64,000 bases of DNA from an uncultured virus (IMG/VR IMGVR_UViG_3300018019_000008) (IMGVR_UViG_3300018019_000008), one strand, 5' to 3'; shown: positions 14,313 to 63,563, numbered from the stretch's first letter. The notes: generated by a model from the sequence alone, not told the origin. Numbers and translations are program-made.

Positions 14313-14328
14313 TTAATCAGATGATTAA
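14313..14328. promoter_or_regulatory. Palindromic operator-like site
   Basis: TTAATCAGATGATTAA, just upstream of the mcm BRE. Confidence 0.7.
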
Positions 14329-15281
14329 TTATCGTCAGTTTCGTCCAATATCGTCAGCGTCTCTAATGCGGCTAATCTTCGAGACAACGGACGCGAAAGA
14401 GTTACTAAGCGAGCGGCTGGAAACGCATAAGATTCTTCGATAACTGTCTTTAATGGTTCCATAGAAAAGGGATTTGATTGTTCGATTGCAATATTAAGCG
14501 GGCTACTATTAAATTCTTCTGGATTATTTATCAAAAAGGAAGCTGGATATAAATGGTGAGCAATCCAACCTGTAAATAGCGAAGGATAAGATTCAAACTC
14601 GAAATCCGTTCTTATCGGAAGTGCCAATAGTCCAATAGAAAATGAATAAGAACGCTCTATAGGAACAGATAACCGTATTGTGGAGAATTTATCACCCTTT
14701 GGTATTGTTATCTGTAGCGATGCAAATTCTATATCAAAATTTGCTTCAGTAAAGCAACTTAATTCTTCTGTCTCTATAATTTCTTGGTAAAGTGATGATA
14801 CTACAAGTGGGTCAACAATCATTTCTAAACAACTATCTTCACTCGCCTTTAGGTCAAGTTCGTACACATTAAACACGTAAAAGTGGTCTATATATTCCAC
14901 ACGAACTTCAGGATACTCTATTTCTATTGGATGCCCGCCACCTATAGTTATTGTAATTGCCTTCAAAATAACGTCAATTGCATAAGGAAGTGAGATATTT
15001 TCTTTTTCCAACAATACACCTAAATCGTATATTGGATAAGCATATCTTTGCAATAAAACGTCAATAGAATATGGCTTTCTAACACCAAGTTTTTCCAATA
15101 AAACATCTAATTGGGTTGGAGCGGTTATGTTGAGACGCTTGAACAAAACACTAAATTGGTCAGTTTCGCGGTTGCCCAACTTTGCAAATATTGAATCTAT
15201 AGTGTCTGTTTTCGTGATATTAAGTCGTTTAATTAAAACATCTATCTGTTCTGTCTTGGTTATTACAGTTTTCTTTTCAAT
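14325..15281 (-). CDS. Repeat-containing probable virion protein; frame extends upstream of the ORF-track start (15179) to ATT 15281
   Basis: About 15-aa repeats (VL[FLI]K[KR]L[NG]IT.T[DE].I) shared with 50902..54264. Confidence 0.6.
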   Translation of the reverse strand: MEKKTVITKTEQIDVLIKRLNITKTDTIDSIFAKLGNRETDQFSVLFKRLNITAPTQLDVLLEKLGVRKPYSIDVLLQRYAYPIYDLGVLLEKENISLPYAIDVILKAITITIGGGHPIEIEYPEVRVEYIDHFYVFNVYELDLKASEDSCLEMIVDPLVVSSLYQEIIETEELSCFTEANFDIEFASLQITIPKGDKFSTIRLSVPIERSYSFSIGLLALPIRTDFEFESYPSLFTGWIAHHLYPASFLINNPEEFNSSPLNIAIEQSNPFSMEPLKTVIEESYAFPAARLVTLSRPLSRRLAALETLTILDETDDN

Positions 15282-15352
15282 AAATCATGCTTCTCTTTTA
15301 TATAACAGAACAACTTGTTAATAAATCTTTCGGTTCGATTTAACACAAAAAG

Positions 15353-16072
15353 TTATAAATCACTATGTAATATAAACTCGCCGTTCTCTCGTATGAACAT
15401 AAGCTGTTTAACGTTCTTATTATCAATGGTTGTCTGATAGCCTATTATGTACGTTAACAAATGGTTTGAGTCTTCGGACACTTTTATCTGCCACGGATGT
15501 TCTTTTTGGCATTTTACACAGAATCGATAAACTTCATTGGACGGCAGTAAATTAGATGGTCGCCCACCTATCTGTAAACGTGTTTTACAATCAGGACAGA
15601 ACAATGAATTATAAGTTTTACATTTCGGGCATTGCGCGACTTCTTTAGGTTTTCCATCAAGCTCGTCTATGACCGTATCTCCATGTATCGGAAGACCAGA
15701 ATCACCGATTGTACCTTCTGGGTATCCCTTCATGGCTTGCCAAACATACCCGCAATTTTCGCATATGTAGAAGGAAAAGAAATTAATAAAATTTCTTCTA
15801 ATGTTAATAAGACGCTGACCCTTTTCCAGCTTCAATATGAAAAACGGCAGATTTTCAGCCTGACGAACAACTATTGCTTTAGCTAAATCGTTAACTTTTG
15901 ATGTTAAATCGGCAGAAAGTGGAAAAAGCCCAAATTTTTGAAGTTTATCTTGGTCGATGTCTTTGAAGAAATTCTCTTTACCAGTTTCTATGTCAAATTG
16001 TGGAAGGCAAGTACCATCATCATAAAATGCTATCCAAAAGAAAACTAGCGGATGAAGCTGTTCATACGGCAT
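15353..16072 (-). CDS. Hypothetical protein with an inserted Zn-binding region
   Basis: Four CxxC pairs; own promoter at ~16103-16120. Confidence 0.55.
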   Translation of the reverse strand: MPYEQLHPLVFFWIAFYDDGTCLPQFDIETGKENFFKDIDQDKLQKFGLFPLSADLTSKVNDLAKAIVVRQAENLPFFILKLEKGQRLINIRRNFINFFSFYICENCGYVWQAMKGYPEGTIGDSGLPIHGDTVIDELDGKPKEVAQCPKCKTYNSLFCPDCKTRLQIGGRPSNLLPSNEVYRFCVKCQKEHPWQIKVSEDSNHLLTYIIGYQTTIDNKNVKQLMFIRENGEFILHSDL

Positions 16073-16186
16073 ATCATATCACAGATAACAAAGAGGGAAA
16101 CTACTATTTAAATGTTATGGAAAAAAAGAGTGTCGCCCATTTGATTGGGACTTAACTGTGAGATGTGATTCCCGACAGGCATATTT

Positions 16187-16855
16187 TTAGCTTTCATCAT
16201 ATTGCCATGTGAGAGTTTTCGATGCTTGAGTGCCCTGAGTTGCTGTGGTATCTACCTTCACCTGAAGGACTATTTCATAGCATGTTGCTGGTGAGCTTAA
16301 TGTGTAAGGTCCAGAATCTATTAACGCTGGCAATACGCTTGTATCTGCATTTAAGTCTGCTACACCGTCTCCCGCCGCTTGGAAGTATGGATGACCCTTA
16401 GTTGAGTCGTTGATTGGGTCTCCACCTATACCAATTGCCGCACCCGCTCCGAGTGCTGTTGCTTGTGCATAGTTAGCCGCTGGACAACCTTGAGGTACAC
16501 TAGCCTTAGAACCGTTCTTTGCTCCACGAGACATTTGACCGTTAGTTCCGAAAGTCCACGAACCAGTAATGTCGCCGTTTGAATAGTGCTTTATGTTCGA
16601 TATAATTTCTGCACCTGAACCACCAGTTGTAAAAAGTACATCTACACTCTTCCAAAAGCTATAGTTAGTTGGTCCGCCTTTATATCCAGCAGTTGCATTT
16701 GCGGGTATGATAACTGGATAAGTAGTCTGTGGGGGATTAGCTGTAGTCTGGTCAATAGTAAATAATCGTATTGCATTGTTCAATATGTTTGTGGCTACTC
16801 CCGCGCCTGAGCCTGTTACTTCCTGAATTGTTGCTGTTGCAACCATATTAATCAT
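16187..16855 (-). CDS. Probable virion structural protein (Gly/Ala/Thr-rich, beta-rich)
   Basis: Composition; shares its promoter and palindrome architecture with the capsid gene. Confidence 0.55.
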   Translation of the reverse strand: MINMVATATIQEVTGSGAGVATNILNNAIRLFTIDQTTANPPQTTYPVIIPANATAGYKGGPTNYSFWKSVDVLFTTGGSGAEIISNIKHYSNGDITGSWTFGTNGQMSRGAKNGSKASVPQGCPAANYAQATALGAGAAIGIGGDPINDSTKGHPYFQAAGDGVADLNADTSVLPALIDSGPYTLSSPATCYEIVLQVKVDTTATQGTQASKTLTWQYDES

Positions 16856-16863
16856 CTGATTAA
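16848..16863. promoter_or_regulatory. Palindromic operator-like site
   Basis: TTAATCATCTGATTAA, about 17 bp downstream of the TATA of the promoter at 16879-16895. Confidence 0.7.
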
Positions 16864-16917
16864 TTATATGCTAAACTAGTATTTAAATCTTATGGGTTAG
16901 AAAATGTAAAAAGGGGT

Positions 16918-22468: not shown

Positions 22469-22919
22469 TGAAAATGAAATAGTCTTCCCAATTACTAAAG
22501 ACTTCTGTTGAAAGACCTGTCAACCAACTTGGCAATTCATTTGGTTTAAGACTTCTTTCAGTAATTACATAGATAGGCTTTTTGAGATAATATGCAAGAG
22601 TCGCTTCGCCGTAGCTTCCGCAAATTTCTGAGCTAAATTTAGGAATCCAAACAGTTAAGAAATCTGCAATTCCTACCATTTTCAGGTCTGTATTTATCAT
22701 ATAAGAACTAACAATAGTACGTGTTGTTCCAATGTCGCCTCTTTGGTTCGCGTCAAAAATCTCTTGTCTAACTTCATCAGTATTTCCTTCTATATTGAAG
22801 GGGTTCAAAGATTCTATTCCAAACTCTTTGAATTTAACCGTAACCATTTCTCTCCATTCTCGACATACACCGTTGTTTTTGAGGGAAATTGGACCAGTTA
22901 AATAGGTTTTAGGTTCCAT
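22425..22919 (-). CDS. Nucleoside 2-deoxyribosyltransferase-like protein
   Basis: YLTGPI, LNP, DLKMV..ADF, GSYGE..LAY...KPIY. Confidence 0.75.
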   Translation of the reverse strand: MEPKTYLTGPISLKNNGVCREWREMVTVKFKEFGIESLNPFNIEGNTDEVRQEIFDANQRGDIGTTRTIVSSYMINTDLKMVGIADFLTVWIPKFSSEICGSYGEATLAYYLKKPIYVITERSLKPNELPSWLTGLSTEVFSNWEDYFIFIEKTWAKNGQRPHQ

Positions 22920-23337
22920 TTTTACTCATCTCCAATATTTTTTTCGCTAATGTTATATCTTGTTCCTTTAATCTTCTTAATGTTTCTTCGAGCACACTTA
23001 TAAACTTTGCTCGTGGTTCGCCTCTAAGTTGTTCAGCAACCATAGCAACTCTTTTTGGGCTTGCATAAACTAATGCTCTAATAGCATCTGCAATTTGATG
23101 ACAACCAAAACAAAGTTCGCTCGTGTTCTCAAGAGCTAAGAGAGGATTCTCTTGAACCGTTTTTGGCTGATAAGCATACCACCAATGATGAAGTGCAGTT
23201 ACTTTAATCTCACCTAATGCAACGCTTTTTCCGCAAGCATCACATTTATGTTTTCTGGGGTCAAATGGTAAAGTGACAATTACGCCGCCACCATGAGCAG
23301 TTTCATAACGTATTTTATAACCTTTCTTTTCAGACAT
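22909..23337 (-). CDS. HNH-like Zn-binding protein
   Basis: CDAC...LHHW...LCFGCH. The start is probably ATG 23337, coupled to the upstream ORF, rather than 23505. Confidence 0.55.
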   Translation of the reverse strand: MSEKKGYKIRYETAHGGGVIVTLPFDPRKHKCDACGKSVALGEIKVTALHHWWYAYQPKTVQENPLLALENTSELCFGCHQIADAIRALVYASPKRVAMVAEQLRGEPRAKFISVLEETLRRLKEQDITLAKKILEMSKNGT

Positions 23338-23587
23338 CTCTTTTCCTACCTGTTTTTTGCTCCCAAAGTTCGAATCCATAAGTTGCGATATAGGTTCTAT
23401 CTTCTTCGCTGAGGGTTCTGAGCCATTTTCGGCGTGTTTTGAGCCAATCAGGTTCGGGTTCTTGTTGGGGTTGATTATTTGACTCATATTGTTCTTCCTC
23501 ATCAACTATATGCTTTTTCTCAGGTTGCTCTATTATTTTTGATGGTTCTTCTACTGGTTTAACAAGTGGTTTCGGCATCGCTCTCAT
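23330..23587 (-). CDS. Hypothetical protein
   Basis: Fills the gap between two HNH-like genes with short overlaps. Confidence 0.45.
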   Translation of the reverse strand: MRAMPKPLVKPVEEPSKIIEQPEKKHIVDEEEQYESNNQPQQEPEPDWLKTRRKWLRTLSEEDRTYIATYGFELWEQKTGRKRDV

Positions 23588-26614: not shown

Positions 26615-26926
26615 TTACCACTTAATTTTGTCAAATCCCATATAAGACCCTATCGCATTGTGGATGTAAATAACACCGTAAAATTGGGCATTAGGGTTAC
26701 GATTCAAAAAGATTTCGACTTCTATTGGATTATTTAGTTCTATGATTTTAAGAATATTCGGAGAAGCAGTCATACTACTAGAAATTTTATCCCAAACAAT
26801 GCTTTCATTCCAAAAAATTTTAATATATTTCCATTGATTGATTCCTGTTCCAAAAGGGTATTTATGGAGCGTTTCAATAAGGATTTCTCGGCTGGTAAAT
26901 TCGGCTTCGGGCATATTTTTAATCAC
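26615..26926 (-). CDS. Hypothetical protein
   Basis: GGTGA RBS lies inside the palindrome at 26919-26934. Confidence 0.5.
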   Translation of the reverse strand: MIKNMPEAEFTSREILIETLHKYPFGTGINQWKYIKIFWNESIVWDKISSSMTASPNILKIIELNNPIEVEIFLNRNPNAQFYGVIYIHNAIGSYMGFDKIKW

Positions 26927-26934
26927 CTGATTAA
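26919..26934. promoter_or_regulatory. Palindromic operator-like site
   Basis: TTAATCACCTGATTAA at a gene junction. Confidence 0.6.
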
Positions 26935-27245
26935 TATTGGTTAAAAACCATTACGGGAATTTCTTTCCATCCTAATTCCCGCAACGCCTTTATTCTATGT
27001 ACACCCTCAACAAGTCTATAAGTGCCATCACCATTAGAAATAACCCACAATCGCTCTTTTAAACCGTTATTTTTTATATTTTCTTTTAATTCCTCACAAT
27101 TAACATTTAAAACAAATTGATTGGTTATTTTTTCTATCGAAACCATTTCCTCATGCCATTTATAAGATGAGGGATTAGTCTGGGACATTAAAGCCGCCGC
27201 CCTCTTGAGTATTTGGTGTTCCACCTGAAGTTTCTGAGCCAGCAC
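26931..27245 (-). CDS. ParB/Srx-like N-terminal domain protein
   Basis: LKENIKNNGL...YRLVEGVHRIKALRELG..EIPV. Confidence 0.8.
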   Translation of the reverse strand: MLAQKLQVEHQILKRAAALMSQTNPSSYKWHEEMVSIEKITNQFVLNVNCEELKENIKNNGLKERLWVISNGDGTYRLVEGVHRIKALRELGWKEIPVMVFNQY

Positions 27246-30160: not shown

Positions 30161-31120
30161 TTATGGAGTAGATGAGATAGTCATCTTGCAAACGCCCGTA
30201 CTCTGAACGAGAACTGGCTTTACTCGAACGCTTGATACGTAGTAGGTGTATGCCCATTGTGTCCAGTAGAAGTTTCTGGTCTGTAGTCTTCGTTTCCATG
30301 CAAGCAATGTAACTGGTCCACGACCAGTATCGTTCGGGAACACGATGTATGAGTAGCTGTCAACGCCTTGATTAGTGTCTGACGGAGTTCCACCAATTCC
30401 AGTACCCGCGAGTAATGGAGTCTTTAGAACACGGCAACCAGCAAACTGTCCGATTTCGCCTTCCATCATCCTTCCTAAGTCGTAAAGTGTGTACCGTTTG
30501 CTGTCAAGGAACTGTGTGCTATTAAGCAATGCGGCGCAAGTATCAGGTGAAGCGATGAAGAACGGTGGATTTGCTGAGTCAACGACCCAATTTGCGTTTT
30601 CCATCTTTGCAAGAGCTTTTGTTATGTCAGTATAAGTCGAACCAGCGGATACGGTGTATTGAACACCAGCACCAGATTCGTAAAGGTCAGCTATGGATGC
30701 GTCTATGTATTCCATGATAGCCAAGCCCATGTTTCTCAAGTGGATACGAACCCACTCGATTTGTGGGAAGTCTTCAAGCAATATGTCTGACAAGTTAGTT
30801 GCGGCAAAGATTGGGTCCGTAACGCTGACGTACCAGTTACTTATCATTTTAGTTGTTGCGACCATACCGATTGACGGATTGACTAAGTTGGCTTCTGTGA
30901 TTGTACTAGCGTACATGTGAGTTAAGAACAAGCCACGAATGGTATTGCCTGTACTGCCAATCAAGGAAAAGTCCTCAAGAGGTAGAGATAGGAAGACCAA
31001 AGGTCGTCTTGGCAACTCGAACACTTCGCTGTAAATCAGGAATGGAGTAGCACCTAAGCCAGCAACGACAGCAGAGGCAGTTAAAGTTTCTTCAATTGTT
31101 ATTTCTTCCATTTTAATCAT
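30161..31120 (-). CDS. Major capsid protein (HK97-fold, inferred)
   Basis: 319 aa downstream of protease and scaffold; AIMEYIDASI, FIASP...ALL, GEIGQFAGCRV. Confidence 0.8.
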   Translation of the reverse strand: MIKMEEITIEETLTASAVVAGLGATPFLIYSEVFELPRRPLVFLSLPLEDFSLIGSTGNTIRGLFLTHMYASTITEANLVNPSIGMVATTKMISNWYVSVTDPIFAATNLSDILLEDFPQIEWVRIHLRNMGLAIMEYIDASIADLYESGAGVQYTVSAGSTYTDITKALAKMENANWVVDSANPPFFIASPDTCAALLNSTQFLDSKRYTLYDLGRMMEGEIGQFAGCRVLKTPLLAGTGIGGTPSDTNQGVDSYSYIVFPNDTGRGPVTLLAWKRRLQTRNFYWTQWAYTYYVSSVRVKPVLVQSTGVCKMTISSTP

Positions 31121-31128
31121 CTGATTAA
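31113..31128. promoter_or_regulatory. Palindromic operator-like site over the predicted capsid transcription start
   Basis: TTAATCATCTGATTAA, about 18 bp downstream of TTTAAATA (31146-31153). Confidence 0.7.
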
Positions 31129-31246
31129 TAGTATCACACTTCTGGTATTTAAATCTATTGTTTCAAAAAGTGTTATATAACAAGAATGTTGTACAACAAA
31201 ACTGTTATAAAAACTAAAAAAGAAAAAAGTTGGGGATAGAATTTTT

Positions 31247-32587: not shown

Positions 32588-32694
32588 CCTTTAGATAATA
32601 ACATAGTGAATCTACTATTTAAAGGTTATGGAAAGTGTAATACAAAATTCTAGTTGTATTACCATAAGACTTATATATCTGTTTATCATTATAG

Positions 32695-32710
32695 TTAATC
32701 AGGTGATTAA
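32695..32710. promoter_or_regulatory. Palindromic operator-like site
   Basis: TTAATCAGGTGATTAA, about 18 bp downstream of the TATA of the plus-strand promoter at 32662-32678. Confidence 0.7.
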
Positions 32711-32713: not shown

Positions 32714-32833
32714 ATGGGATTTGGCGACCCTCTTCACGTTCCAATATGTCCAAATTGTAAAACATCAAAGAATATAGTCTGGAATGCTAAAGGTCAATTC
32801 AGATGTAAAAAATGCGGGTGGAAACTTGAATAA
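32714..32833 (+). CDS. Small zinc-ribbon protein (39 aa)
   Basis: Manual translation MGFGDPLHVPICPNCKTSKNIVWNAKGQFRCKKCGWKLE, with a GGTGA RBS. Confidence 0.7.
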   Translation: MGFGDPLHVPICPNCKTSKNIVWNAKGQFRCKKCGWKLE

Positions 32834-33200
32834 AAATACATCTATCCGTCTAGGTGACACTCTTGATGAATTAATCGACCAATACGCCGCATTTATGAAT
32901 ATAGACCGTTCAAAAGTTATCAGAACAGTATTAATGGAAGGTCTTTTTCAAAAAACTAAAGCGGCTCAATTTCAACATTTTGAAGATTGGTTAGCCAAGA
33001 GAGAAATATTTGAACTAATGAAAGAATGTGAGAAATGTGGAAAAAAAGAAAATTTAGGATTCTATCACATAGACGGTAACATAGACAATAATGCATCAAG
33101 CAACATAGTTACTCTATGCGTCCCATGCCTAAACGCTTTTCAAAATTGGAAGCTAAAACAAAATATAAAAGAGAAGTTTATTGAATGGTTTTTTGCTTAA
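32826..33200 (+). CDS. Ribbon-helix-helix regulator fused to an HNH-like Zn domain
   Basis: TSIRLGDTLDELIDQYA..MNIDRSKVIR (RHH) then CEKC...HIDGN..NN...N...LC..C. The start is probably TTG 32826 after GGTGG. Confidence 0.7.
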   Translation: MNKNTSIRLGDTLDELIDQYAAFMNIDRSKVIRTVLMEGLFQKTKAAQFQHFEDWLAKREIFELMKECEKCGKKENLGFYHIDGNIDNNASSNIVTLCVPCLNAFQNWKLKQNIKEKFIEWFFA

Positions 33201-37802: not shown

Positions 37803-37839
37803 ATTTACTTTATTTTATATACAATCTACTATATAAATC

Positions 37840-41948: not shown

Positions 41949-41964
41949 TTAATCAGGTGATTAA
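41949..41964. promoter_or_regulatory. Palindromic operator-like site between divergent promoters
   Basis: TTAATCAGGTGATTAA, just upstream of the plus-strand promoter at 41969-41984. Confidence 0.7.
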
Positions 41965-45470: not shown

Positions 45471-45752
45471 CTATAGAATATGAATTCCCATCAAACTTAA
45501 ATAATAAAGAATAGTAACTATGACTCCGAATGTTCCTACGCCAGCCGTGAGATATTTCCAAACTTTCTTTTCGCCTTGTTTTATACCGTTTGCCTCAGCT
45601 TTTTTCTTCTCTAAACTATTTAGTCTTTCAACACATTGACCAAGTTCGTTATTCATTACACCGACATGTTCTTTAATGTACTTAACGTCAACCTTCATCT
45701 CAGCCATTTGTGCAACTAGCTTTATCAATTCCGCATTCTCGCTGTCGTTCAA
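45471..45752 (-). CDS. Coiled-coil protein with a C-terminal TM helix
   Basis: Heptad pattern then a hydrophobic helix; promoter at ~45787-45803. Confidence 0.6.
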   Translation of the reverse strand: MNDSENAELIKLVAQMAEMKVDVKYIKEHVGVMNNELGQCVERLNSLEKKKAEANGIKQGEKKVWKYLTAGVGTFGVIVTILYYLSLMGIHIL

Positions 45753-45828
45753 GATTCAACACCAAATGATTTGAAAGGTAAAACTAGTATTTAAAGGTAT
45801 CGGTGTTAACTAACAAATTTTGATGGGT

Positions 45829-48800: not shown

Positions 48801-48831
48801 TTACTATGTACAACATGAGAACATACCCCAT
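45829..48831 (-). CDS. polB: Family B DNA polymerase (B1-like) with a ~184-aa in-frame insertion
   Basis: SIDIEV, TFNGDDFD, YCLGD, DFASLYPS, KVICNASYGVFG, IYGDTDS, KKNY. Confidence 0.93.
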   Translation of the reverse strand: MGYVLMLYIVSANYDYNLKCVILSLYNNDTEKLEYYFDGEYKPYFYTKERQNFAGIIKQEQVELYDALNDQKVIVWKVTVDGPNRISDFNKKETEVIAWENHIKPAMQYVYDNNIKMGMPYVRESGTLILNLEAAAEKRVENLVELAKPEPYNKVICEQLARLLEYPAPEFKRVSIDIEVWNEGMKVPSPRSANLPVICVCFETNRGEKYAFVLIQEGKQFSCPTDAIITWFSDEAELLRAVFAFGSQYPFIVTFNGDDFDLPYLMNRALRLGVSISEIPITIKPKEKIAYWKDAIHIDLYKFFQIRSMQNYAFQQKYKNVNLDEVSKALIKKGKIKGEHEWVGEMTYEELITYCLGDANLTIELTTYSDNVVMNLILVLARLGYMPIEMVSRKPISQWIRSFIYYEHVKRGYLIPRSEDIIAMKGTTTTTALVKGKKYKGAIVVNPVAGVHFNVKVGDFASLYPSIMKNWNLGYSTVNCPHGQFIQKMSNDTKRFIWVMLHSILQNKELNIQCQQENLMKLMKNIENETENTRETTEVKTNPPSINGNEKIITNLWKLLHSNFNERKTALNIETNLKPTQFVENQEKNIQENGKIENEKNFANDLLNLKVHNANDVEILMNELLKYTTLVAEETSKEEIFISLLEEWIGKNYSYFVPIVIELLTMYECYSNKVAGMQHWICKKNRAIEGQLIGTLKDLRVKWYKQQAKDKTNPFRTWYSVSEQSIKVICNASYGVFGDETFVLYCPPVPEYVTGIGRWIITQTIKHGQELGLNVIYGDTDSIFIKDPAPEILEELLIWAKEKFDIDFELDKEYRYACLSGRKKNYFGVLKDGTVDVKGLTGKKKHTPHIIRTPFDETKKLLAQVHNDEDIKPVKKAILKLVKDTYTKIKTRNFEDMENLAFHVTASKDIDEYDGDPQHIKAAKQLKAAGYDIGEGSEISFVKTTDKLKVKPTKLAKPSEIDVTKYNEFLKNTFIQILEPLGLDWDRDIIGICMMDRFLY
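46829..47293 (-). CDS. HNH endonuclease nested within polB in an alternative frame
   Basis: Basic N-terminus, CERCG, EIHHI, LQLLCANCH; internal promoter motif at 47339-47354. Confidence 0.85.
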   Translation of the reverse strand: MPARKPNETDEEYRKRNREYQRDYRSKNKSTINKRQRENYHKSMETSSFKLQRKKDSLKYRNKLKTDPIRRESRKKYSREWQNRKRKELRQRFIKSKGAQCERCGNPDERTFEIHHISGRRDFEGRNLYITLRRVDWKELQLLCANCHRIAHYV

Positions 48832-49716: not shown

Positions 49717-49759
49717 AAAGAGCTATTAGTCTTCGTCCTATTTAAACCTTACGAACTAA

Positions 49760-49775
49760 TTAATCAGTTGATTAA
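49760..49775. promoter_or_regulatory. Palindromic operator-like site
   Basis: TTAATCAGTTGATTAA, just upstream of the minus-strand promoter at 49738-49753. Confidence 0.7.
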
Positions 49776-54275: not shown

Positions 54276-57200
54276 CTAAGTATTTCCATCGCTAAGTACG
54301 TTTCGCTGGCACTTTATATTGAAGAAGTGAGCTACACATCTGTAATATGGCGGATTATCTGGGGTTGGATGTGAGCCAGACGCTAAGATGTATATAGGTC
54401 GAACTGTTATACTGCTCAAATATTGTGAAGTGCCTTGTTGATTAGGTGTATTGAATGATGTGTAAACCGCGCTATAAACTGGTGGGTTATTTATGTCTGT
54501 GTTTGCTATAGTGAAAAGAACTTCTGGGAGTGCATTTCCATATTGGACACCGTTAAATTCTACTTGTATTGTAGCTTTGTAATGAGTGTTAGATAAAATA
54601 CCGCACATAAATTTAGCTTTACCGTTAGTAATCATAGTCGATACTGGAACATATAACGCCTCATTGTATCCCCCTTCACCATAAGGAGCACCAGTATAGT
54701 AATCTGACGCTTGAGCAGAAAAACAAGCATATACATAGAATTCTCCTTTTGCTACACAAACTATTCTAAAGAAGAACCCTGTTCCGTATCCAAGATAAGC
54801 ACTTTCGCCGTTAGCTGTATTTACTCCTGAAGATGGATTAGACATCATTCCAACATCAATATAATCTCCTATATTCCATATAGTACCACTACTGCCTGAC
54901 TTGCTATATGGCGGATTAGCTGGTTCATAAACTTCAAAGGTTGTAGTAAACTTTGGCTCTTGTGTTAATGGAATATCAGTTGCTTGTCCCTGTAAATTGT
55001 TTCCACCAGCATCGAAACATTTGTTACTATATCTTGCTTCTTGCCATACTATTCCTATGTTAGTTTTATCTCCACCCCAGATAGCGCAATTAGAAGTATC
55101 GGCTTTCCATCCAGCGTCATTACTTGGTGAATAACCACTTGGACCGTTTGTTTGTGGGAACCATTGTGGGTCACTTGAACCTTGACCTGTAGTTACTTCC
55201 TCGTTTTTCGCCGTTTTACTAAAGAGAGTTGATAATTTGTCTGGATTAACTTTATTCGATTGTGCTCCTTCAGCCGCCCAATCAGTTGCGATAACACCCA
55301 TTATTCCCAATGTCTTCAATTGCTTATAAACATCTTTCCAAACATTGCTGATGTCGAGATAAGGTGCCTGACAAGTTAATGTTATGTTTTCACCATTTTC
55401 ATCAACTTTTGCTTCGGTATTCCAAATTCTATATGCGCTTGTTAGGTTGTTTGGAATTGCATTAGGTACTAACCCAGACAGAACATCATTAAGTACAACG
55501 TCATCTCCAACATCGTAAATATTGGGGTTTGAAGAGTTAAAACCATGTTCATATGTGTCTCTTCCTATTTTACATGTTATTGCATTCTTTCTTTTCGGGC
55601 TTGCATCAATCTTCAATCTAACTTTAGCATATCTATCAGCGATTCTGCCACCAGCAACTTGTTTCTGGGTGAAAATATCTTCGAAGAATCCCTGAATTTC
55701 ATCCATAGCTTCTGAATCATTTGACCATATTGAGCTAGAATCTTCTTGATTCTTTCCTTCGCCACTTCCTATTACTTGAACTCTTTGATAAGTATCTCGT
55801 GAAGTTCGCTGGTATTTAACTGATTGCATATTTGTTCCTGTTACAAACGAGACAGAAGTGGACTTGTCGCTTCCTACTCTTGGACCCATATGGAAGTCTC
55901 CGATACAATTAAGAGGGTCATGAACTGATGGAGATTCTATCCACCATTCAAATGGCAAATAATCGTCATTTACCATCGTACCTATATCGAAAAGAATGTC
56001 CATTAATCTGTTTTTTGGAATGTTGGTTGGACCAATCATGAAAAGGTCACCTTGCGTATATCCCGAAGGATTTCCCGTTTGCTCGCTGTATGATATGAGA
56101 TTTAAGTCAATATCAGCATCAGCTAAATAGATATATGGACCCCCGCTATAAACAGGTCCAATGTATGCGTAACAAATCCCGTTACCAACTCCATCTCCGC
56201 CGTCAGGAGTATATAAAAGAATTACATCATTTTGTTTAGGAGCATAAACCCCGTTAGTTGCATCGACACGCCATTCATAAACGTAAAAAGGACTTTCATA
56301 TGTACCTATGTCAACATAATTGTTCTGTCCATCATCAATAAGTATTCCTATAAAATTTTGTGGAGCAAAAGAATTAGCATAAACTTGCAATCCTAAATCT
56401 GTATTAACAGTTGGACTATATGTTTGACTATAATCAATGTTAAAGTTTCCTTCTATGAAACTAGCGTATGCAGAAGAAACATACATATGGTCGATTGGAT
56501 TAGTAAATGTAGTTTCTGTAGGATAAGGAGAAGTAGGAATCCCACTACCATTAAACGGAATTATATTTCCAGTAGATATTGGAGTAATCGAATTATCTCC
56601 CTCAATAATTAACAATCCATATGTTCCTTGAATAAAGGAGACAGTAATAGTTTGAGAATAAGTGCCTGAAAGATTACTATATACCCCAACAATACCATTA
56701 CTGCTAATACCCCAGAAATATACAATCCAAGTTCCAGTATAAGAATTAAGGTCTATTTCAAACCATTCCTGAGTTAAACTTCCGTTTGCAAAGATAACTT
56801 TAACTAAATCGGTTGTATTTGTATCTTGCAAAGTTGAAGTATCTAGAATTAAACTAAAATTATTATAGAATTTTACGTTACCTTGCGAAGTTGTTAGTAT
56901 TGTTTCTCCCGCATTTACCTGAGCATAAGTAGCGGTATATTCCTCTGCCGTACCTGTTTCTGTGAATTCTATTTTATATTCCTTTGTTTTTTGTACTGCT
57001 GAAGGGTCTGTTACGTTATTTGGTAGTAATGCTTCATCCCATCTTACCCAATACTTTACGGGGTCCGTTCTATAGATGTAGGTTTGAGTAATTTCCCATC
57101 CATGATTATAATTATCGCTTTTAGATTCGCTGATTGATGTTCCCAATCCCGCCGCTGGGTCAGCATAGATTTTTACATTTGTCATATTTCGTGGGTGCCA

Positions 57201-60200
57201 GCTATGTAAAATATCTGGATAAATATTTTGAAGGTGACACATAGCTTGGTTAGCAGTAGTGTAAGAATGAACAAGCGGATTTTGTAGAGTAATTGTGTTT
57301 CCATTTACCGATTCTATAACATTGATTTCACAATTTGTTGGATTGCCATTCGGGTCGAAAGTATCCATGATTCCTATATTCATACTTGGTTGGAAGAAGG
57401 CATTTGGAGCACTCGAAAGAACTATTGTTGATGAGCCTTTAGATGCATTTGAAGCCAAAGTTATAGGTTGATATGTATTAACTAAAGTTATTTCTGGTCC
57501 AAGTCCAGCAGATATAACTCCTAAAGTGTATGTTTCTGATTGAGTATTTATATCCATTGCATCGAGAAAAGTAGCGTAAGTAGAACCACTTCCATATACT
57601 TGTAAATTCGGGTCATACTCAGCTTCAAAATCAACTGTATCTATAGTTCCAGCATTATTGAGGGAAGTAAATTGAGCGAGTAAAACTGGTGTGCCGCTGG
57701 TAATATTGTACAGTTGTACATATCCAGAACCAGCAGAAAGAGAAGCTATTAACCTAATTTGAATCCATGTACCATTAATAATAGGGAAATCAGTCCAACT
57801 TGTACCCCATTCTCCATTTAGAACAAGATTACCATTTTCCATAAGGAAAAATCTCATGTATTGTTGATTGGAATTTGCATATAAACTGGTTTCAACTCCA
57901 ACAACGGCGGCGCAAGATGTCATATTTGGATTTGGACGAGCGACAGATGAACTATTATAAAGTTTCAATAGATTAATCCAACCATAAGATAAAGTTCCAT
58001 TGAAGTTAAGTAAAACTTGCCCGATTTGGAATTGAGCATATGCTGGATTACCTGATGTTTCAATGCTTCCAACAATAGAAAACTTTACTTGTGCGCTCAT
58101 CCAATCATCGTAAGATGTCAAATATGAAGATATGTCAGTTGGTGCAAACAAGTTTGCCCAAGATGTGCTTGAAAATTGATTTCCAGAATCAGCAACTTGT
58201 ACCCAACTACCTGAGTGCGCTACCCATAAGAATGCTTGAACCCGTATATTTTGTATAGCACCGTTTCCGCCTATGTTATTTTGGATTCTTGCTGATACGT
58301 TAAAGTGACAAGGACTTGTAGGTACACATGCAGTACCATTCGTACTGAAAGCATTAGCTAAGTTATCAAATGTGCAATAGTCAGCAGAAGCCCATGTAGG
58401 AACTACAGTACCTAAAACATAAATATGGTTATCATCTTCATCACTACTTGTTCTAACATATGGTGCCGTACCAGCCGTAAGCCAATGGTTACTACCAGCC
58501 TGATTCCAAGTAGCCGCCATTACATTGCCATTTTTGCTCTGATTATGCGGTGGCGGAGCACGAACCCAAGCATCTACTTGAACAAAAGATGTGGGATTAA
58601 TATCTTCCTCAAAATACCATTTTTGACCGTTAGCAGTACATTGTATTTGTTGGCATCCAGTTCCTTGTATTTGTTGTGTAGTGTTTGTTGAGTCTTGAGC
58701 GTTTCCACCAAAAGTGCTCCAAGTATTGGCTGTACTTGATTGAGCAGTAAAATCATCAATCCATACTCCATAACCATCAAAAGATGCTGTGTCGATGAAG
58801 ATATTTACAACTTGTTTCGTATTGTTTGTCCAAGCATTTGCTTTAGCATCCTCAAAAATCCAACCAGTTTGAGTAGAAACTATAACAATGGGAGATAATG
58901 TATTGTCGCTATAGACTAAATAATACTGGAATCGTTTACCTTGAACTTGACCTCTATGCCAGAACCCTAAACTTGTACAATTATTATACACTACAGACGG
59001 ATTAAAGTTTGCTGATTGTGTAGCTGTACATTCTTCAGGAACATTAAAACTAGATTCTGTGCATGGCATATATAAGTCCCATATTCCGCTATGTGCATTA
59101 GTGCCATCATTATAAATTTCGGCATTAGAAAGAAGCCATCCCGTACTATCGCCAGTTTCAAAGCCGCCGTTAATAAATTGTTGTCCGCCACTTGTAAAAG
59201 CGTCCATATTATTGGAATAAATTTCTGCTAATCCCTCAAAAGCATAAGATATTGCCATATAACGATATGTAAATGTATCCCCAGCATTAGTAATTGGACA
59301 ACTCCAAATTAATTCACTTTGTTTCATAGTTCCAGCATTATAGATATAATATGTAAGGGTTGTACCACTTCTTATAACCTGAACCCAATATGTAGTACCT
59401 ATAGAAAGATTACTTATTCCATTAACAAACGTTCCAGCGAAATATGTTTCTGTACCATAACTACTGCCTTTATATCTAACTTCTGGGTATAATACCCCGC
59501 CTATGTTAATAATATCGAAAGTAGTGAAAGCACCAGCTTCTTGCTCTATTGTGTAAAAGTTTGCTATTTGATTAGCCAAACACCACGGTATAAATGCTGG
59601 CGCATTATGTGGAGATGTTGATGTAGAACAAGGTTGAGAAGTTCCTATATTAAAGGCAAAACTTTCATTAATAGTTCCGTTTATAGGACCAGTTTCAGTT
59701 GCGTTTATTCCTTGTCTGTAGAAATATGCAATTTTACTTGAATTATCGCTTTGATAAGAATAAAACGTAAGTTGGTCTTGTCCAGCATCTAAAGCAAGAT
59801 AAGGTGGGTTTGGTGTTGATGCCTCATAGAGAGTATAGCCATTAAAAAGTTCTAGTCCACCCGAAGTTGTAATATGATAAGCGGCTGGAAATGAATTAAT
59901 ATGCTCTCTGCTTTCAAGATAAACCCCCATACATGGGATTTCATTAAATTGTATATTAACCCAATCTGGATTATGACCAGAAGTTTTAGTAGGATTTGGG
60001 TAAATAGTTCCGCCACTTGCATATCCAACTTGGAGATAACAGTAACGAATGTAAGTAGAAAGAAGACCTAATTCTACGAATTTTATTCTCGCGTTATTTA
60101 CATCGCCAACATTCGTAAGAACATGTGAAAGGTCAATAGTATATATTCTCCAAGCTAATTTATTTATGTCATAAATACTTCCAAACGTGAGACTTGCAAG

Positions 60201-61226
60201 CGCATTACTTCTTCCAATCATCTCTCCCATATCAGACCAATCTCCATTAGAAGCAGTATATACAAGAACTTCGCAATCAGATTGAATGAATGGATTTAGA
60301 GTAAAGTCCCCCGCTGACCATATTACAAGAGTACAACTATTAACCGCTGTAGCATTATCTGGGGAAGCATATGGGGGCATAGGCTTACCATTTGGATTTT
60401 CCCAAAGAGGATTAACTGAGAAAGTAATGGAAGCATTAACGTTAATATTAGATTGAATATAACTTGTTGGTCTTGTTCCAAGAAGGATACTGTCATTTGC
60501 ATAAGGAGCGGTGCCTATTTCATCCCATCCGCTATTTTGCATAACTGCTCCAACTACTCCTTCATAACCGTGATATTCATCTGTAGGTTGACTTATTTCA
60601 AAAGGAGTCCCAGAATTTGACCAAATCATATCTCTTTTTCTTAAAACAGTAGTGTTTATATCGCCATATCCTTCTTGATTATCTGGACCTCGACCACCTT
60701 CTAAAGCTATGAAATTGGAAATGTCAATTCCCCATCCTTCTTTATTATAAGGATACATTGATTCAGCAGTAGTAGAAGTATCGCTTGGAACTTGTGGTAA
60801 ATCTGAACGCGGAGTCCAGAGTAAAAACTTCATCAACTCAACTGGATTAATATTTCCGAAAAATCCTTTGGTTTCTGGAAGTGGATTATTAAAGTTTTCT
60901 ACATACTTTCGCCAGAGCAAAAGTGTAAGGTCTCGTCCACCAAGATTAAGGAATCGTCCATCTTCATCCCAATCAATTTCTATATCTTCAACGAACCCTA
61001 CCCATTCTTGATTTCCATCACGCACAAATTGAATTAGGTCATTGAAAGTAACGTTAGGGTCATACTCAATTGTAGCTGTAAATTCTGGGGGAGAATCCAT
61101 TCTAACTTTCTTTTTAACATCAAATGTTGTCCACTTACGCGGGAGTCCCCAATTAGGACTTGGAGTCCCAACAATATTAGCTTGATGAGCTATATAAACT
61201 GTCCATGTTTTTCCAGATTCAGGCAT
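54276..61226 (-). CDS. Giant tail-tip/baseplate hub protein with adhesin-like insertions
   Basis: Hub-like N-terminus (WVGFVEDIE...GRDL) and C-terminal part (VSFVTGTNM...RVQVIGSGEG...YDVGDDV); follows the tape-measure-like gene. Confidence 0.7.
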   Translation of the reverse strand: MPESGKTWTVYIAHQANIVGTPSPNWGLPRKWTTFDVKKKVRMDSPPEFTATIEYDPNVTFNDLIQFVRDGNQEWVGFVEDIEIDWDEDGRFLNLGGRDLTLLLWRKYVENFNNPLPETKGFFGNINPVELMKFLLWTPRSDLPQVPSDTSTTAESMYPYNKEGWGIDISNFIALEGGRGPDNQEGYGDINTTVLRKRDMIWSNSGTPFEISQPTDEYHGYEGVVGAVMQNSGWDEIGTAPYANDSILLGTRPTSYIQSNINVNASITFSVNPLWENPNGKPMPPYASPDNATAVNSCTLVIWSAGDFTLNPFIQSDCEVLVYTASNGDWSDMGEMIGRSNALASLTFGSIYDINKLAWRIYTIDLSHVLTNVGDVNNARIKFVELGLLSTYIRYCYLQVGYASGGTIYPNPTKTSGHNPDWVNIQFNEIPCMGVYLESREHINSFPAAYHITTSGGLELFNGYTLYEASTPNPPYLALDAGQDQLTFYSYQSDNSSKIAYFYRQGINATETGPINGTINESFAFNIGTSQPCSTSTSPHNAPAFIPWCLANQIANFYTIEQEAGAFTTFDIINIGGVLYPEVRYKGSSYGTETYFAGTFVNGISNLSIGTTYWVQVIRSGTTLTYYIYNAGTMKQSELIWSCPITNAGDTFTYRYMAISYAFEGLAEIYSNNMDAFTSGGQQFINGGFETGDSTGWLLSNAEIYNDGTNAHSGIWDLYMPCTESSFNVPEECTATQSANFNPSVVYNNCTSLGFWHRGQVQGKRFQYYLVYSDNTLSPIVIVSTQTGWIFEDAKANAWTNNTKQVVNIFIDTASFDGYGVWIDDFTAQSSTANTWSTFGGNAQDSTNTTQQIQGTGCQQIQCTANGQKWYFEEDINPTSFVQVDAWVRAPPPHNQSKNGNVMAATWNQAGSNHWLTAGTAPYVRTSSDEDDNHIYVLGTVVPTWASADYCTFDNLANAFSTNGTACVPTSPCHFNVSARIQNNIGGNGAIQNIRVQAFLWVAHSGSWVQVADSGNQFSSTSWANLFAPTDISSYLTSYDDWMSAQVKFSIVGSIETSGNPAYAQFQIGQVLLNFNGTLSYGWINLLKLYNSSSVARPNPNMTSCAAVVGVETSLYANSNQQYMRFFLMENGNLVLNGEWGTSWTDFPIINGTWIQIRLIASLSAGSGYVQLYNITSGTPVLLAQFTSLNNAGTIDTVDFEAEYDPNLQVYGSGSTYATFLDAMDINTQSETYTLGVISAGLGPEITLVNTYQPITLASNASKGSSTIVLSSAPNAFFQPSMNIGIMDTFDPNGNPTNCEINVIESVNGNTITLQNPLVHSYTTANQAMCHLQNIYPDILHSWHPRNMTNVKIYADPAAGLGTSISESKSDNYNHGWEITQTYIYRTDPVKYWVRWDEALLPNNVTDPSAVQKTKEYKIEFTETGTAEEYTATYAQVNAGETILTTSQGNVKFYNNFSLILDTSTLQDTNTTDLVKVIFANGSLTQEWFEIDLNSYTGTWIVYFWGISSNGIVGVYSNLSGTYSQTITVSFIQGTYGLLIIEGDNSITPISTGNIIPFNGSGIPTSPYPTETTFTNPIDHMYVSSAYASFIEGNFNIDYSQTYSPTVNTDLGLQVYANSFAPQNFIGILIDDGQNNYVDIGTYESPFYVYEWRVDATNGVYAPKQNDVILLYTPDGGDGVGNGICYAYIGPVYSGGPYIYLADADIDLNLISYSEQTGNPSGYTQGDLFMIGPTNIPKNRLMDILFDIGTMVNDDYLPFEWWIESPSVHDPLNCIGDFHMGPRVGSDKSTSVSFVTGTNMQSVKYQRTSRDTYQRVQVIGSGEGKNQEDSSSIWSNDSEAMDEIQGFFEDIFTQKQVAGGRIADRYAKVRLKIDASPKRKNAITCKIGRDTYEHGFNSSNPNIYDVGDDVVLNDVLSGLVPNAIPNNLTSAYRIWNTEAKVDENGENITLTCQAPYLDISNVWKDVYKQLKTLGIMGVIATDWAAEGAQSNKVNPDKLSTLFSKTAKNEEVTTGQGSSDPQWFPQTNGPSGYSPSNDAGWKADTSNCAIWGGDKTNIGIVWQEARYSNKCFDAGGNNLQGQATDIPLTQEPKFTTTFEVYEPANPPYSKSGSSGTIWNIGDYIDVGMMSNPSSGVNTANGESAYLGYGTGFFFRIVCVAKGEFYVYACFSAQASDYYTGAPYGEGGYNEALYVPVSTMITNGKAKFMCGILSNTHYKATIQVEFNGVQYGNALPEVLFTIANTDINNPPVYSAVYTSFNTPNQQGTSQYLSSITVRPIYILASGSHPTPDNPPYYRCVAHFFNIKCQRNVLSDGNT

Positions 61227-61237
61227 TTTCTATTCTC

Positions 61238-61621
61238 CTACCTATATTTCTTTCTATATTCTTTATTTTCATATCGTTTTATCCAATTGCAGTTAGCACA
61301 AAGAAGTTGATAATCCTTACTACCAAGTTTAATTTGTTCAAGAATATAATAAAAATAAGTTGCACAACCATTCTTAAAATGGGTTCTTTCTTTATTTCCG
61401 CCGCCGTTAATATGGTCAATCTGTAATGCTCTCCAATCTGTCATTCCATCAGGAACAGCACAATTAAGATTAGAACACTTACTACCGAGTAGTTCAATAA
61501 TTTTCATTCTTATTTCATGAGTTCTTTCTCGCTGTTGTTTTGCTCGTTCTTCTCTATGATTTTTATTATATCTTTGCATATTGTTTAATCCATCATTTAT
61601 TTTTCTACTCATATTTATCAA
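61238..61621 (-). CDS. HNH endonuclease (subfamily B)
   Basis: RALQIDHINGGG...KDYQLLCANCNWIKRYEN; close paralog of 38899..39372. Confidence 0.85.
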   Translation of the reverse strand: MINMSRKINDGLNNMQRYNKNHREERAKQQRERTHEIRMKIIELLGSKCSNLNCAVPDGMTDWRALQIDHINGGGNKERTHFKNGCATYFYYILEQIKLGSKDYQLLCANCNWIKRYENKEYRKKYR

Positions 61622-61623
61622 CC

Positions 61624-62448
61624 TTAACGATTGTTCATTGCGATAGTCCTTGATTGCTTTTTCATAATGTCATTCATGTCATCCTTATCCATCTTTGTAT
61701 TCATTGTTTCAACGTTCATCGATGCATCTATAACTGTAGTTCCGCCCATTCCACCCGCCGCCGCTGGTGTACCTGTATGTGGATTATACACGACTTCGCC
61801 TTCATGAAGCATTGCTAAACCAGTATGAGGAACGCTCATAGTACCCATTTGATATGATGGTGCTCCACCGCCTAACACGCCAGAAGCCGCTAAACCAGCC
61901 GCCGCCGCGCCGCCAGCCAAACCACCTACCATTGCTAACCCCATTGTTGTGATGTTTTCCCATGTAAATAACAGAATAAGAGCCGCTACAATACCCATTA
62001 TTGCGGCGATAACTGCATCAGCCCACTTTGGAAAACTTTGAAGCGCATAAGACATAATCATGAATACAGCAAAAGCCGCACCTATTGAAATAGCTAAGGA
62101 TTGATATGACAAATCCATACCAAAAACAGTTACAGTATTTTGCATTTGCGCCATAGAGAGAGCTTTTGTTATTCCAGCAACCATAGACATAATACCCATT
62201 ATCTGCATGAAATTACCAGTTAATGAAAGCATTTTTCCGCCAGTACCGCCTATTTGTTGCCCTAAAACCGTAAACATAGTTCCAGCCATTAAAGCGGATT
62301 TACCCATTTCTATTTGTGCTAAAGCCATATTCTTTTGTTGTGTTATCATTCCATCTAACTGTTTCATCGCACTCATAAGTATAGCAGTTGTATAGTTTGT
62401 TGCTCTCAAAGTAAGCCAGACAGTTCTTAAATTAGTTGTTGCCGCCAT
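61624..62448 (-). CDS. Short tape-measure-like protein
   Basis: Ala/Gly/Met-rich hydrophobic helices and YQMG...GLAMLHEGEVV; downstream of the tail chaperone. Confidence 0.65.
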   Translation of the reverse strand: MAATTNLRTVWLTLRATNYTTAILMSAMKQLDGMITQQKNMALAQIEMGKSALMAGTMFTVLGQQIGGTGGKMLSLTGNFMQIMGIMSMVAGITKALSMAQMQNTVTVFGMDLSYQSLAISIGAAFAVFMIMSYALQSFPKWADAVIAAIMGIVAALILLFTWENITTMGLAMVGGLAGGAAAAGLAASGVLGGGAPSYQMGTMSVPHTGLAMLHEGEVVYNPHTGTPAAAGGMGGTTVIDASMNVETMNTKMDKDDMNDIMKKQSRTIAMNNR

Positions 62449-62454
62449 TTTTCA

Positions 62455-62901
62455 TTACTCCTGAGTATTTACTCCCATTTCGGTCAAGGCTTCATCGACA
62501 GCCATTTCAATATCTTCCGCATAAACCATATAAGCATCATCGAGGAAAGGGTCTCCCTCATAAAACATTCCGTTTCTCATTAAATGTCCATCATGAACAA
62601 GCATGGCATAATCGGATGTCGGTTTGCCACTTAATGGGTTAACAATGCTAGGGTCGCCCGCGTAAACTGAAGCGTTGAAAAAATCATTACCTGAACTTAT
62701 GGCACCGCCCTCAAGATTTATACTACTTGATAAAGCTCCTGTTTCTTTTGGGCAATAATCAATCGCCAAAGCCTTAACGTTTTCCATAATTTCTTGAAGC
62801 TCTTCTGCAACAAAAACTGGTAGCTCTTCATTTATATAAACTAGAGTATCCTCTACTTGTTGAGTAGTTCCGTCATCTGTTACTCCCATACTTATACACA
62901 T
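62455..62901 (-). CDS. HK97 gp10-like tail completion protein
   Basis: CPKETGALSSSI, YAMLVHDG, PFLDDA. Confidence 0.75.
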   Translation of the reverse strand: MCISMGVTDDGTTQQVEDTLVYINEELPVFVAEELQEIMENVKALAIDYCPKETGALSSSINLEGGAISSGNDFFNASVYAGDPSIVNPLSGKPTSDYAMLVHDGHLMRNGMFYEGDPFLDDAYMVYAEDIEMAVDEALTEMGVNTQE

Positions 62902-63082
62902 TTTTATCTTCTCCTACCACTTCGTATAGGTTGTGAATTGTATTTGTCTCTATCGTTTTTGGCTTTAATGTACTCTAATATTAAGAGCTTGTCTGCCATT
63001 GACGGACACCGACTATCTAACTCGCTGAAACTGCAATGAAGGAACTCACAGACTACCATTAGGTTGAATCCGTAGTTCGAGG

Positions 63083-63544
63083 CTAAAAATTTCCGACCAT
63101 GATTCCTAGTTTCCGATATGCATCAAATATGTATATCGTAAACATTTCTTGGAATACTAAGTCAGTATTTTCTCGCCAATATGCCGCATCATGCTTCGGT
63201 TTTGCAATTAGCTTTTCCATCATATCGAATGAATGATTCTTATACTTTTCCTGAAGAGCTTCTGGTATTTGAGTTGGGTCTTTATATGGTAGCAATTCAG
63301 TTGGAGTCATATCTTCCCACTCTTTAGCGGAAGGTCTTCGAATCCAACATAATGGCTCACCAGTATTAGGGTCTAACATTGGGTCAAGAATGTCATGGAA
63401 ACGTTTTATGTTTGCATCAAGCTCTTCAGCATTTTGTGTCATTTTCTGCTTTGCAAGTTCCATCTTTTTGATGTCTTCAGCTAATTGTTCGGGTGTCCTT
63501 TTATATCTTTCGATTATTGCTAATTTTCTTTGTTCGGATGCCAT
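63083..63544 (-). CDS. Tail assembly chaperone; a -1 frameshift product would extend to 62904
   Basis: Ends in the slippery sequence A AAT TTT TAG, and the -1 frame is open to 62904. Confidence 0.65.
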   Translation of the reverse strand: MASEQRKLAIIERYKRTPEQLAEDIKKMELAKQKMTQNAEELDANIKRFHDILDPMLDPNTGEPLCWIRRPSAKEWEDMTPTELLPYKDPTQIPEALQEKYKNHSFDMMEKLIAKPKHDAAYWRENTDLVFQEMFTIYIFDAYRKLGIMVGNF

Positions 63545-63547
63545 GAT

Positions 63548-63563
63548 TTAATCATCTGATTAA
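63548..63563. promoter_or_regulatory. Palindromic operator-like site over the predicted tail-operon transcription start
   Basis: TTAATCATCTGATTAA, about 17 bp downstream of the TATA of the promoter at 63579-63595. Confidence 0.7.

Follow-up and report, generated by a model that had tools for sequence, protein, structure and literature searches.

A 16-bp palindrome at promoters in two geometries, a candidate operator of uncultured archaeal head-tailed viruses

In Pyrococcus furiosus, the palindromic TGM sites of the regulator TrmBL1 repress when they lie downstream of the TATA box, where they block the recruitment of RNA polymerase, and activate when they lie upstream of it, and the regulon spans many promoters (PMC4706686). 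Viruses of the Sulfolobales carry conserved regulatory sequences around the promoters of early genes, and a winged helix-turn-helix repressor, Aca8, has been predicted for them (PMC11065993). The intergenic repeats of the halovirus HF2 (58 and 29 bp) contain promoters (PMC8707807). Here we describe a 16-bp palindrome, TTAATCANNTGATTAA, that recurs at promoters in a stretch of 64,000 nucleotides (nt) from an uncultured virus (IMG/VR IMGVR_UViG_3300018019_000008; the whole stretch is called the window below) and in its relatives. On balance, we regard it as probable that the palindrome is the operator of a virus-encoded, sequence-specific DNA-binding protein with two-fold symmetry, common to a family of uncultured archaeal head-tailed viruses.

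Like the TGM sites, the palindrome is a single sequence that occurs at two positions relative to the TATA box and at many promoters, a likeness that here concerns the geometry only. TrmBL1 is a cellular sugar regulator of the TrmB family with a different motif, whereas the copies described here are near-invariant and often arrayed, and no TrmB-family match was found among the 71 window proteins or among the 131 scanned of the 207 open reading frames (ORFs) called in the complete relative G042. The palindrome system may work like TrmBL1 but is not a member of that system. With the sequences of the Sulfolobales viruses, some of which have inverted repeats overlapping the transcription factor B recognition element (BRE), it has in common that it appears virus-specific, occurs at many promoters, differs between lineages and is borne by a (candidate) regulator gene. 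The Sulfolobales case, however, concerns viruses of thermoacidophiles (rudiviruses and others) in which the motif is confined to the surroundings of early promoter cores, whereas the present case concerns head-tailed viruses, two geometries and a motif whose letters do not change even between distant relatives. As in HF2, an archaeal tailed virus carries intergenic, promoter-tied repeats that are conserved in sequence and position within the genus; unlike in HF2, the palindrome does not contain the promoter, being a separate 16-bp dyad beside or after an ordinary BRE/TATA. Ribbon-helix-helix (RHH) autorepressors of the CopG/Arc/MetJ type are small regulators that act on their own promoter, and in the window, too, the dyad is found on the promoter of a small RHH-type gene itself, over the predicted start site. 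Unlike in those autorepressors, this site is rarely kept in relatives, the presumed DNA-reading strand varies, and the protein has an HNH-like zinc finger and a gene located among head-assembly functions. Literature searches, with supplementary files outside their scope, returned no description of this motif among the papers listed.

The window derives from an archaeal-type head-tailed virus, as judged from Pfam and PHROG scans of its proteins, and according to our own gene calls (71 genes) only 6.4% of it is non-coding. The palindrome was found exactly eight times, starting at 14313, 16848, 26919, 31113, 32695, 41949, 49760 and 63548, and not once in 100 dinucleotide-preserving shuffles. All eight copies fall within this non-coding 6.4% or share a few bases with a start or stop codon. 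The original prediction, made on the window itself, had listed the same eight copies as intergenic or at gene boundaries and had put the chance expectation far below one copy in 64 kb, and in these respects it was borne out. When up to two mismatches were allowed a single copy was added, with one mismatch and inside an ORF (9342..9357); as 1.6 such matches are expected by chance, this copy is compatible with chance and was not counted as part of the system. Half-sites numbered 33 in total, 17 of them isolated, against around 23 expected in total. The isolated ones are thus not enriched, which makes the full 16-bp dyad the unit. Around 30 promoters can be recognised in the window, and seven of these bear the palindrome.

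Basically two arrangements can be discerned. In the downstream class, the TATA 8-mer ends 16, 17, 17 and 16 nt before the copies at 16848, 31113, 32695 and 63548, respectively, which matches the predicted distance of 17-18 bp. The copy of the major capsid gene (31113..31128; TATA 31146-31153 on the minus strand, 17-nt gap) lies over the predicted start of transcription, with the ATG at 31111, 1 nt past the motif. Predicted starts are likewise covered by the copy of the tail operon (63548..63563; TATA 63580-63587, minus strand, 16-nt gap), of which the first gene is 63083-63544, and by that of gene 16187-16846 (16848..16863; TATA 16880-16887, minus strand, 16-nt gap). The product of the latter gene belongs to no known family, and the G042 counterpart of its cluster has lectin-like fibre genes. 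The fourth copy over a predicted start (32695..32710; TATA 32670-32677, 17-nt gap) precedes a plus-strand operon that encodes a TFIIB-type zinc ribbon (32714-32833) and an RHH/HNH-like protein (32826-33200). The gene identities given in the original prediction held for the capsid, the tail operon, MCM, GNAT, PolB and, as a weak match, the RHH protein, whereas the label 'structural' for gene 16187 derives from its neighbours only.

In the upstream class, gaps of 12, 12 and 13 nt separate the end of the palindrome from the TATA 8-mer (copies at 14313, 41949 and 49760, respectively), and the conserved CC[AG]TAA block follows the palindrome after 4-6 nt, in agreement with the 5-7 bp upstream of the BRE that had been proposed. 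The first of these (14313..14328; TATA 14293-14300, minus strand) belongs to the promoter of the MCM gene (11209-14262), and the upstream gene 14325-15179 has its TAA stop within the left arm of this copy. The copy at 49760..49775 (TATA 49739-49746, minus strand) lies between divergent promoters, upstream of the GNAT-HNH-PolB operon. The third (41949..41964; TATA 41977-41984) precedes a plus-strand promoter that faces around 300 nt (about 42010-42330) without a credible ORF, tRNA or Rfam match. The surrounding stretch of 585 nt (41785-42369), which coincides with a switch of gene orientation, contains this canonical promoter, an AT-rich tract and a C-rich run (~42280-42320), and was found to lack a credible ORF, tRNA, Rfam match or direct repeats as a whole; it may represent a non-coding RNA or an origin. 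The eighth copy (26919..26934) is situated at a gene junction, and no TATA box lies within range of it. The ParB-like gene 26931-27245 has its stop codon inside this copy, and the ATG of gene 26615-26914 follows after 4 nt. The orthologue of the copy in the related locus L120, again at the end of a ParB-like gene, is followed after 21 nt by the TATA box that belongs to the next promoter; L120 lacks the 103-residue gene that follows the copy in the window.

The capsid protein alone had no match in GenBank phages or IMG/VR, and an alignment of homologues was needed to recover relatives. On the basis of 45 aligned capsid homologues, 42 metagenome loci, two IMG/VR loci and two loci in one metagenome-assembled genome (MAG) were obtained. 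A raw pattern scan of IMG/VR was uninformative, with more than 118 single chance matches among the matches listed. Within the 36 non-redundant regions upstream of the capsid gene, 16 had a palindrome of the TCA type (at most two mismatches), down to a capsid identity of around 40%, and in 15 of these 16 it followed the TATA box, the exception being L119, where it lies upstream of it. A symmetric variant occupied the same place in six to seven of the 36 regions and 13 had none. The 14 specified bases were identical across viruses that share only ~42-86% capsid identity. At the MCM promoter the palindrome was present in all three genomes with upstream DNA (the window, the MAG bin G001 and G042), each time 12 nt upstream of the TATA box, and in the intergenic region between GNAT and PolB in two of three (the window and contig C78 of G001), with none in G042. 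Strong conservation of position in relatives, on which the original prediction had been made to depend, was thus found at the capsid, MCM and GNAT/PolB promoters.

Taking the window and its relatives together, 76 non-redundant exact copies were recovered. A set of 63 non-redundant copies (at most one mismatch) was classified by reading the table of distances: in 24 the start lies 12-18 nt past a TATA 8-mer and in two it lies 3-5 nt past it, 21 precede a TATA 8-mer, from which their ends are 8-27 nt away (with modes at 8 and 12), and for 16 there is no TATA box in range, these being mostly members of arrays and in two cases coding. G001 (1.3 Mb) contained 20 exact copies on nine contigs, against none for the reversed control, and the contigs that were checked are viral; one has a copy before the TATA box of MCM and another has one between divergent PolB and GNAT promoters, as in the window. 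A further set was found in G042, a complete virus from IMG/VR (112,412 bp, with terminal repeats), which has 35 exact copies, two with one mismatch and one with two mismatches. Many of these lie upstream of the promoters of small-gene cassettes or are arrayed in ORF-poor DNA, with six copies within 1.3 kb at 37.7-39.0 kb. The arrays comprise three to six exact palindromes, 43-400 nt apart (37729-38956, 42498-42665, 44438-44705 and 45546-45845), in stretches without an ORF of at least 60 amino acids, and the palindromes are frequently bordered by AAAGA / TCTTT, by which the dyad is lengthened. A role as terminator was considered and rejected, as the TCTTTT that follows some G042 copies is on the wrong side for a co-directional upstream gene, and in the window no T-run accompanies the copies.

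Symmetric variants provide a further line of evidence. We collected 200 non-redundant 16-mers of the form TTAA-N8-TTAA from 612 kb, and in 84 of them the three inner pairs were complementary, against 39 expected by permutation. Besides 76 of the TCA/TGA type, the 84 included four GCA/TGC, three GTA/TAC and one ATA/TAT. TTAAGCA..TGCTTAA occurs in three copies in L152 and one in L126, TTAAGTA..TACTTAA in two copies in L156 and one in L139, and TTAAACAATTATTTAA in four identical copies in the complete virus G043. Such changes of both arms within a lineage are predicted by a two-fold symmetric binder with lineage-specific specificity.

The sequence of the palindrome, its enrichment, geometry, orthologous conservation and lineage variants support a real cis-element that is tied to promoters in two geometries. 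Protein binding, the positions of the start sites, the direction of regulation and the identity of the binder we infer from these features as follows. Archaeal TATA boxes usually lie at about -30 to -23 from the start of transcription. A copy that starts 12-18 nt after the TATA box would then span roughly -9 to +12 around the predicted start, and a dimer bound there would block the recruitment of RNA polymerase. In this way the capsid gene, the tail operon, the 16187 gene and the RHH operon would be repressed and, in relatives, the candidate regulator's own gene. A copy that ends 8-13 nt before the TATA box, abutting the BRE or just upstream of it, or an upstream array, would act on the recruitment of TBP and TFB. 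We lean towards activation for these upstream copies, although the sequence cannot decide the sign. An early/late switch, in which structural genes are repressed and replication genes activated, is plausible given the analogy with the position-dependent TrmBL1, though not universal.

The original prediction had put forward the RHH protein of the window as the obvious binder, a proposal that turned out to be poorly supported. The protein (32826..33200, plus strand) appears to consist of two domains, a putative RHH domain and an HNH-like zinc finger. The match to RHH is weak (Pfam RHH_1, E 0.0013 and 19 bits, below the cut-off of 20.5; NikR, E 0.43). The structural model shows helices and, as a monomer, no N-terminal strand; a fold search with it placed CopG only at rank 42 and yielded no more than weak matches to HNH and DotN (best E 0.038). 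The gene is syntenic in 20 loci, on the opposite strand inside the head-assembly module. Apart from the window, its own promoter carries the palindrome only in L119 and L120 out of 16 non-redundant relatives; in L130 and L131 the palindrome is found instead on the promoter divergent from the gene. Moreover, the predicted DNA-reading strands under one and the same TCA-type motif read TSIRLG, VISVEMT, IPVRLS, VATRIS, VITRIT and TSVWIK, while L156 and L148 have similar strands and different motif types, and the histidine of the HNH-like finger is not invariant. Considering that the strand varies under a constant motif and that the site on the gene's own promoter is rarely kept, the RHH/HNH protein is a weak candidate. 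A role in DNA packaging is equally possible and fits the place of the gene in the head-assembly module. The first gene of the same operon (32714-32833, plus strand) encodes a stand-alone zinc ribbon of 39 amino acids that matches the zinc-binding domain of TFIIB (PF08271, E 2.2e-7, 30.7 bits against a curated cut-off of 29) and that was not found by tblastn in the loci of the relatives. Such a free mimic of the TFB ribbon could hinder the recruitment of RNA polymerase.

A better, though unproven, candidate is a conserved helical protein of around 100 amino acids. In G042 this protein has 111 amino acids, and its gene, divergent from the tail operon, lies under the single copy of that genome that is placed over a start site. 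The gene has the same geometry in G001 (contig C123), with the palindrome over the predicted start, and in G043 the start-site position on its promoter is taken by that virus's own variant of the palindrome. We found 75 homologues with 45-92% identity to the protein, whereas the identity of the capsid protein on length-matched contigs (66,037 and 106,774 bp) is no more than 45-48%. The predicted structure is helical, with a mean confidence (pLDDT) of 76.9. The right end of the window stops just past the promoter of the tail operon. Taken furthest, these observations would suggest a family-wide code that is read by a novel DNA-binding protein of this kind, without a match to any known fold and far more conserved than the capsid, which represses its own gene and late genes from start sites and activates replication genes and small-gene cassettes from upstream sites and arrays, and with which the operator variants TCA, GCA, GTA and A[CT]A co-evolve; as a whole we consider this extended scheme tentative and rather doubtful.

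Several points weigh against the palindrome being a viral operator, or against parts of that proposal. In G042 only one of the 35 copies lies over a start site (21349) and the capsid promoter has none; the position of the L119 capsid copy upstream of the TATA box argues against the repression of late genes in particular. The transcription starts are predicted from the usual archaeal distance to the TATA box. No recognisable transcription-factor domain was detected in the 131 scanned ORFs of G042 (Pfam, E <= 0.001-0.01), and the model of the 111-residue protein resembled no known DNA-binding fold (Foldseek returned nothing and VIA-align generic helical proteins, with a best Z of 5.1). This protein is not encoded in the window, and nothing ties it directly to this virus. 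Finally, near-invariance and arrays are atypical for the regulon of an ordinary transcription factor and would suit sites of origin or partition equally well.

The latter point is the basis of the first alternative, in which a DNA-binding protein that mainly serves replication, segregation or packaging would bind near-perfect 16-bp palindromes throughout the genome. The copies would then act in origin function, partition or silencing (like sites of the parS/ParB or OB/KorB kind) or as iterons, with effects on promoters being secondary. The 16-bp parS and 13-bp KorB sites resemble the palindrome, and near-perfect palindromes at several positions in a genome are what one sees for ParB/parS or KorB/OB. 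The near-invariance of the sites (35 exact copies in G042 against two with one mismatch), the arrays of three to six copies in ORF-poor stretches and the copies that adjoin MCM and PolB are likewise in line with such a function. Furthermore, the window encodes proteins with a ParB_N domain (26931-27245, Pfam E 1.5e-6, and 35312-36199, E 0.008), and the copy at 26919 overlaps the stop of one of these, a placement that is kept in L120. However, 47 of the 63 non-redundant copies keep a fixed distance to TATA/BRE, and the copy at the capsid promoter is kept in place. In addition, the scanned ORFs of G042 contained no match to ParB_N, and the short ParB-like protein of the window ends right after the N-domain, without a helix-turn-helix. 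Given these observations we consider this alternative unlikely.

A second alternative holds that a host transcription factor binds the palindrome and that the viruses adopted its site. There is a precedent in the host protein Sta1, which is reported to activate SIRV1 promoters (PMC1635249), and both the maintenance of the 14 specified bases across ~42-86% capsid identity and the lack of a recognisable viral transcription factor among the scanned ORFs of G042 could be explained in this way. Against it, 40 genomes related to G001 contained a single copy in all, G001, the bin with the viral contigs, being a putative host bin; this suggests that the palindrome is virus-specific. Lineage-specific symmetric variants exist, and a highly conserved small viral protein bears the site on its own promoter. 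Adoption of a host site therefore seems quite improbable. At 0.3-1.3 Mb, G001 and the 40 genomes related to it are small, and if the binning mirrors the host, these viruses of ~100 kb may infect small-genome archaea.

The third alternative places the function at the level of the RNA, as an extended Shine-Dalgarno sequence or a hairpin in the 5'-leader that masks the ribosome-binding site. To appreciate it, the expression signals of the virus have to be considered. For 30 of the 71 window genes there is a TATA 8-mer whose end lies 20-60 nt upstream of the start codon; C[AG]TAA-like BRE letters stand before almost all of these 8-mers, and the same BRE/TATA consensus is present at around 23 promoters without a palindrome. 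The signals are uniform at around 30 promoters, with CC[AG]TAA-N2-TTTA[AT]ATA, ~24 nt, GTGAT(T/A)A and ATG following each other (e.g. 1283, 14262, 38908), a spacing that implies leaders of only ~10-12 nt with the Shine-Dalgarno sequence at the very 5' end. GGTGAT fits the archaeal anti-Shine-Dalgarno sequence. Genes of this virus usually have GTGATTAAnATG as their ribosome-binding context, with or without the left arm, the distance from TATA to ATG is equal with and without a palindrome, and in five of the eight copies (16848, 31113, 63548, 32695 and 26919) an ATG follows the right arm, (G/A)TGATTAA, after 1-4 nt. In this virus that arm thus serves at the same time as ribosome-binding site, and if the dyad is an operator the arm would have been recruited additionally as a Shine-Dalgarno sequence plus spacer.

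The same function does not account for the palindrome elsewhere. A fixed short distance to a start codon fails for three of the eight copies, which lie upstream of promoters, and in relatives such as L121-L123 and L125, among others, a separate GGAG is present 8-10 nt downstream of the palindrome, which still follows the TATA box of the capsid gene; the capsid leader of L122, for example, reads ...TTAATCAGTTGATTAA-ctaaaaac-GGAG...ATG. These two observations make a Shine-Dalgarno function insufficient as the sole account. From the spacing to the TATA box, transcription would moreover start at positions 6-10 of the motif, so that the left arm would stay untranscribed, and the hairpin that the palindrome could form in RNA is weak (-2.6 to -4.1 kcal/mol). 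The caveat raised at the outset, that the motif might only be an extended Shine-Dalgarno sequence, is therefore correct for the right arm in this virus and does not cover the whole; as the sole explanation an RNA-level element is largely refuted, and we rate it as very unlikely. Least probable of all are selfish or enzyme-target repeats (REP-like palindromes or targets of HNH homing endonucleases), since, in spite of the near-identity of the copies and the presence of at least nine HNH-type genes in the window and many more in G042, the copies occupy orthologous positions at the capsid, MCM and GNAT/PolB promoters of diverged genomes, keep a fixed spacing to the TATA box and, as read by eye, are not consistently adjacent to HNH genes in G042.

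The further gene content of the window includes a family-B polymerase (PolB; 45829-48831) as well as a ribonucleotide reductase, RadA and a primase, all identified by Pfam/PHROG matches. The MCM protein (11209-14262, minus strand; Pfam) contains an intein with a LAGLIDADG domain, inserted within the P-loop domain. The capsid protein (30161-31111) is of the HK97 type, its homologues carrying PF25209, and the scans also showed a tail module (54276-63544) that includes a match to a tail completion/Neck1 protein (62455-62901); the tail operon has a homologue in G042. The HNH-type endonuclease genes are paralogous, have lysine-rich N-termini and are dispersed over the genome (838-1278, 3437-4069, 20713-21246, 23559-24041, 38899-39372, 42924-43469, 48794-49255, 61238-61621 and 63629-64000); G042 has a similar set. 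Other genes encode a peptidyl-prolyl isomerase/chaperone of the FKBP26 type, with IF and C-terminal domains (40640-41434, minus strand), and a conserved zinc-finger protein of 198 amino acids (22909-23505) for which a search of the ESM Atlas was uninformative. In G042, the region 73704-74333 (L208:13704-14333) matches ribosomal protein L16/L10e (PF00252, E 8.6e-20), and two DruA-domain proteins, a papain-like protease and a dual-specificity phosphatase are encoded as well.

The viruses of this family are known from metagenomes only, and the temporal control of genes has hardly been studied in archaeal head-tailed viruses beyond a few halophile and Sulfolobales models. In this family a single 16-bp word marks between eight and 35 promoters per genome, and its place is kept at the capsid, MCM and polymerase genes. 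The palindrome would thereby allow expression classes to be predicted from the sequence alone, and it narrows the candidate regulators down to a short list. The variants of the putative operator constitute a natural series in which the co-evolution of protein and DNA may be studied, and in one lineage the same stretch of DNA appears to serve both as operator and as ribosome-binding site.

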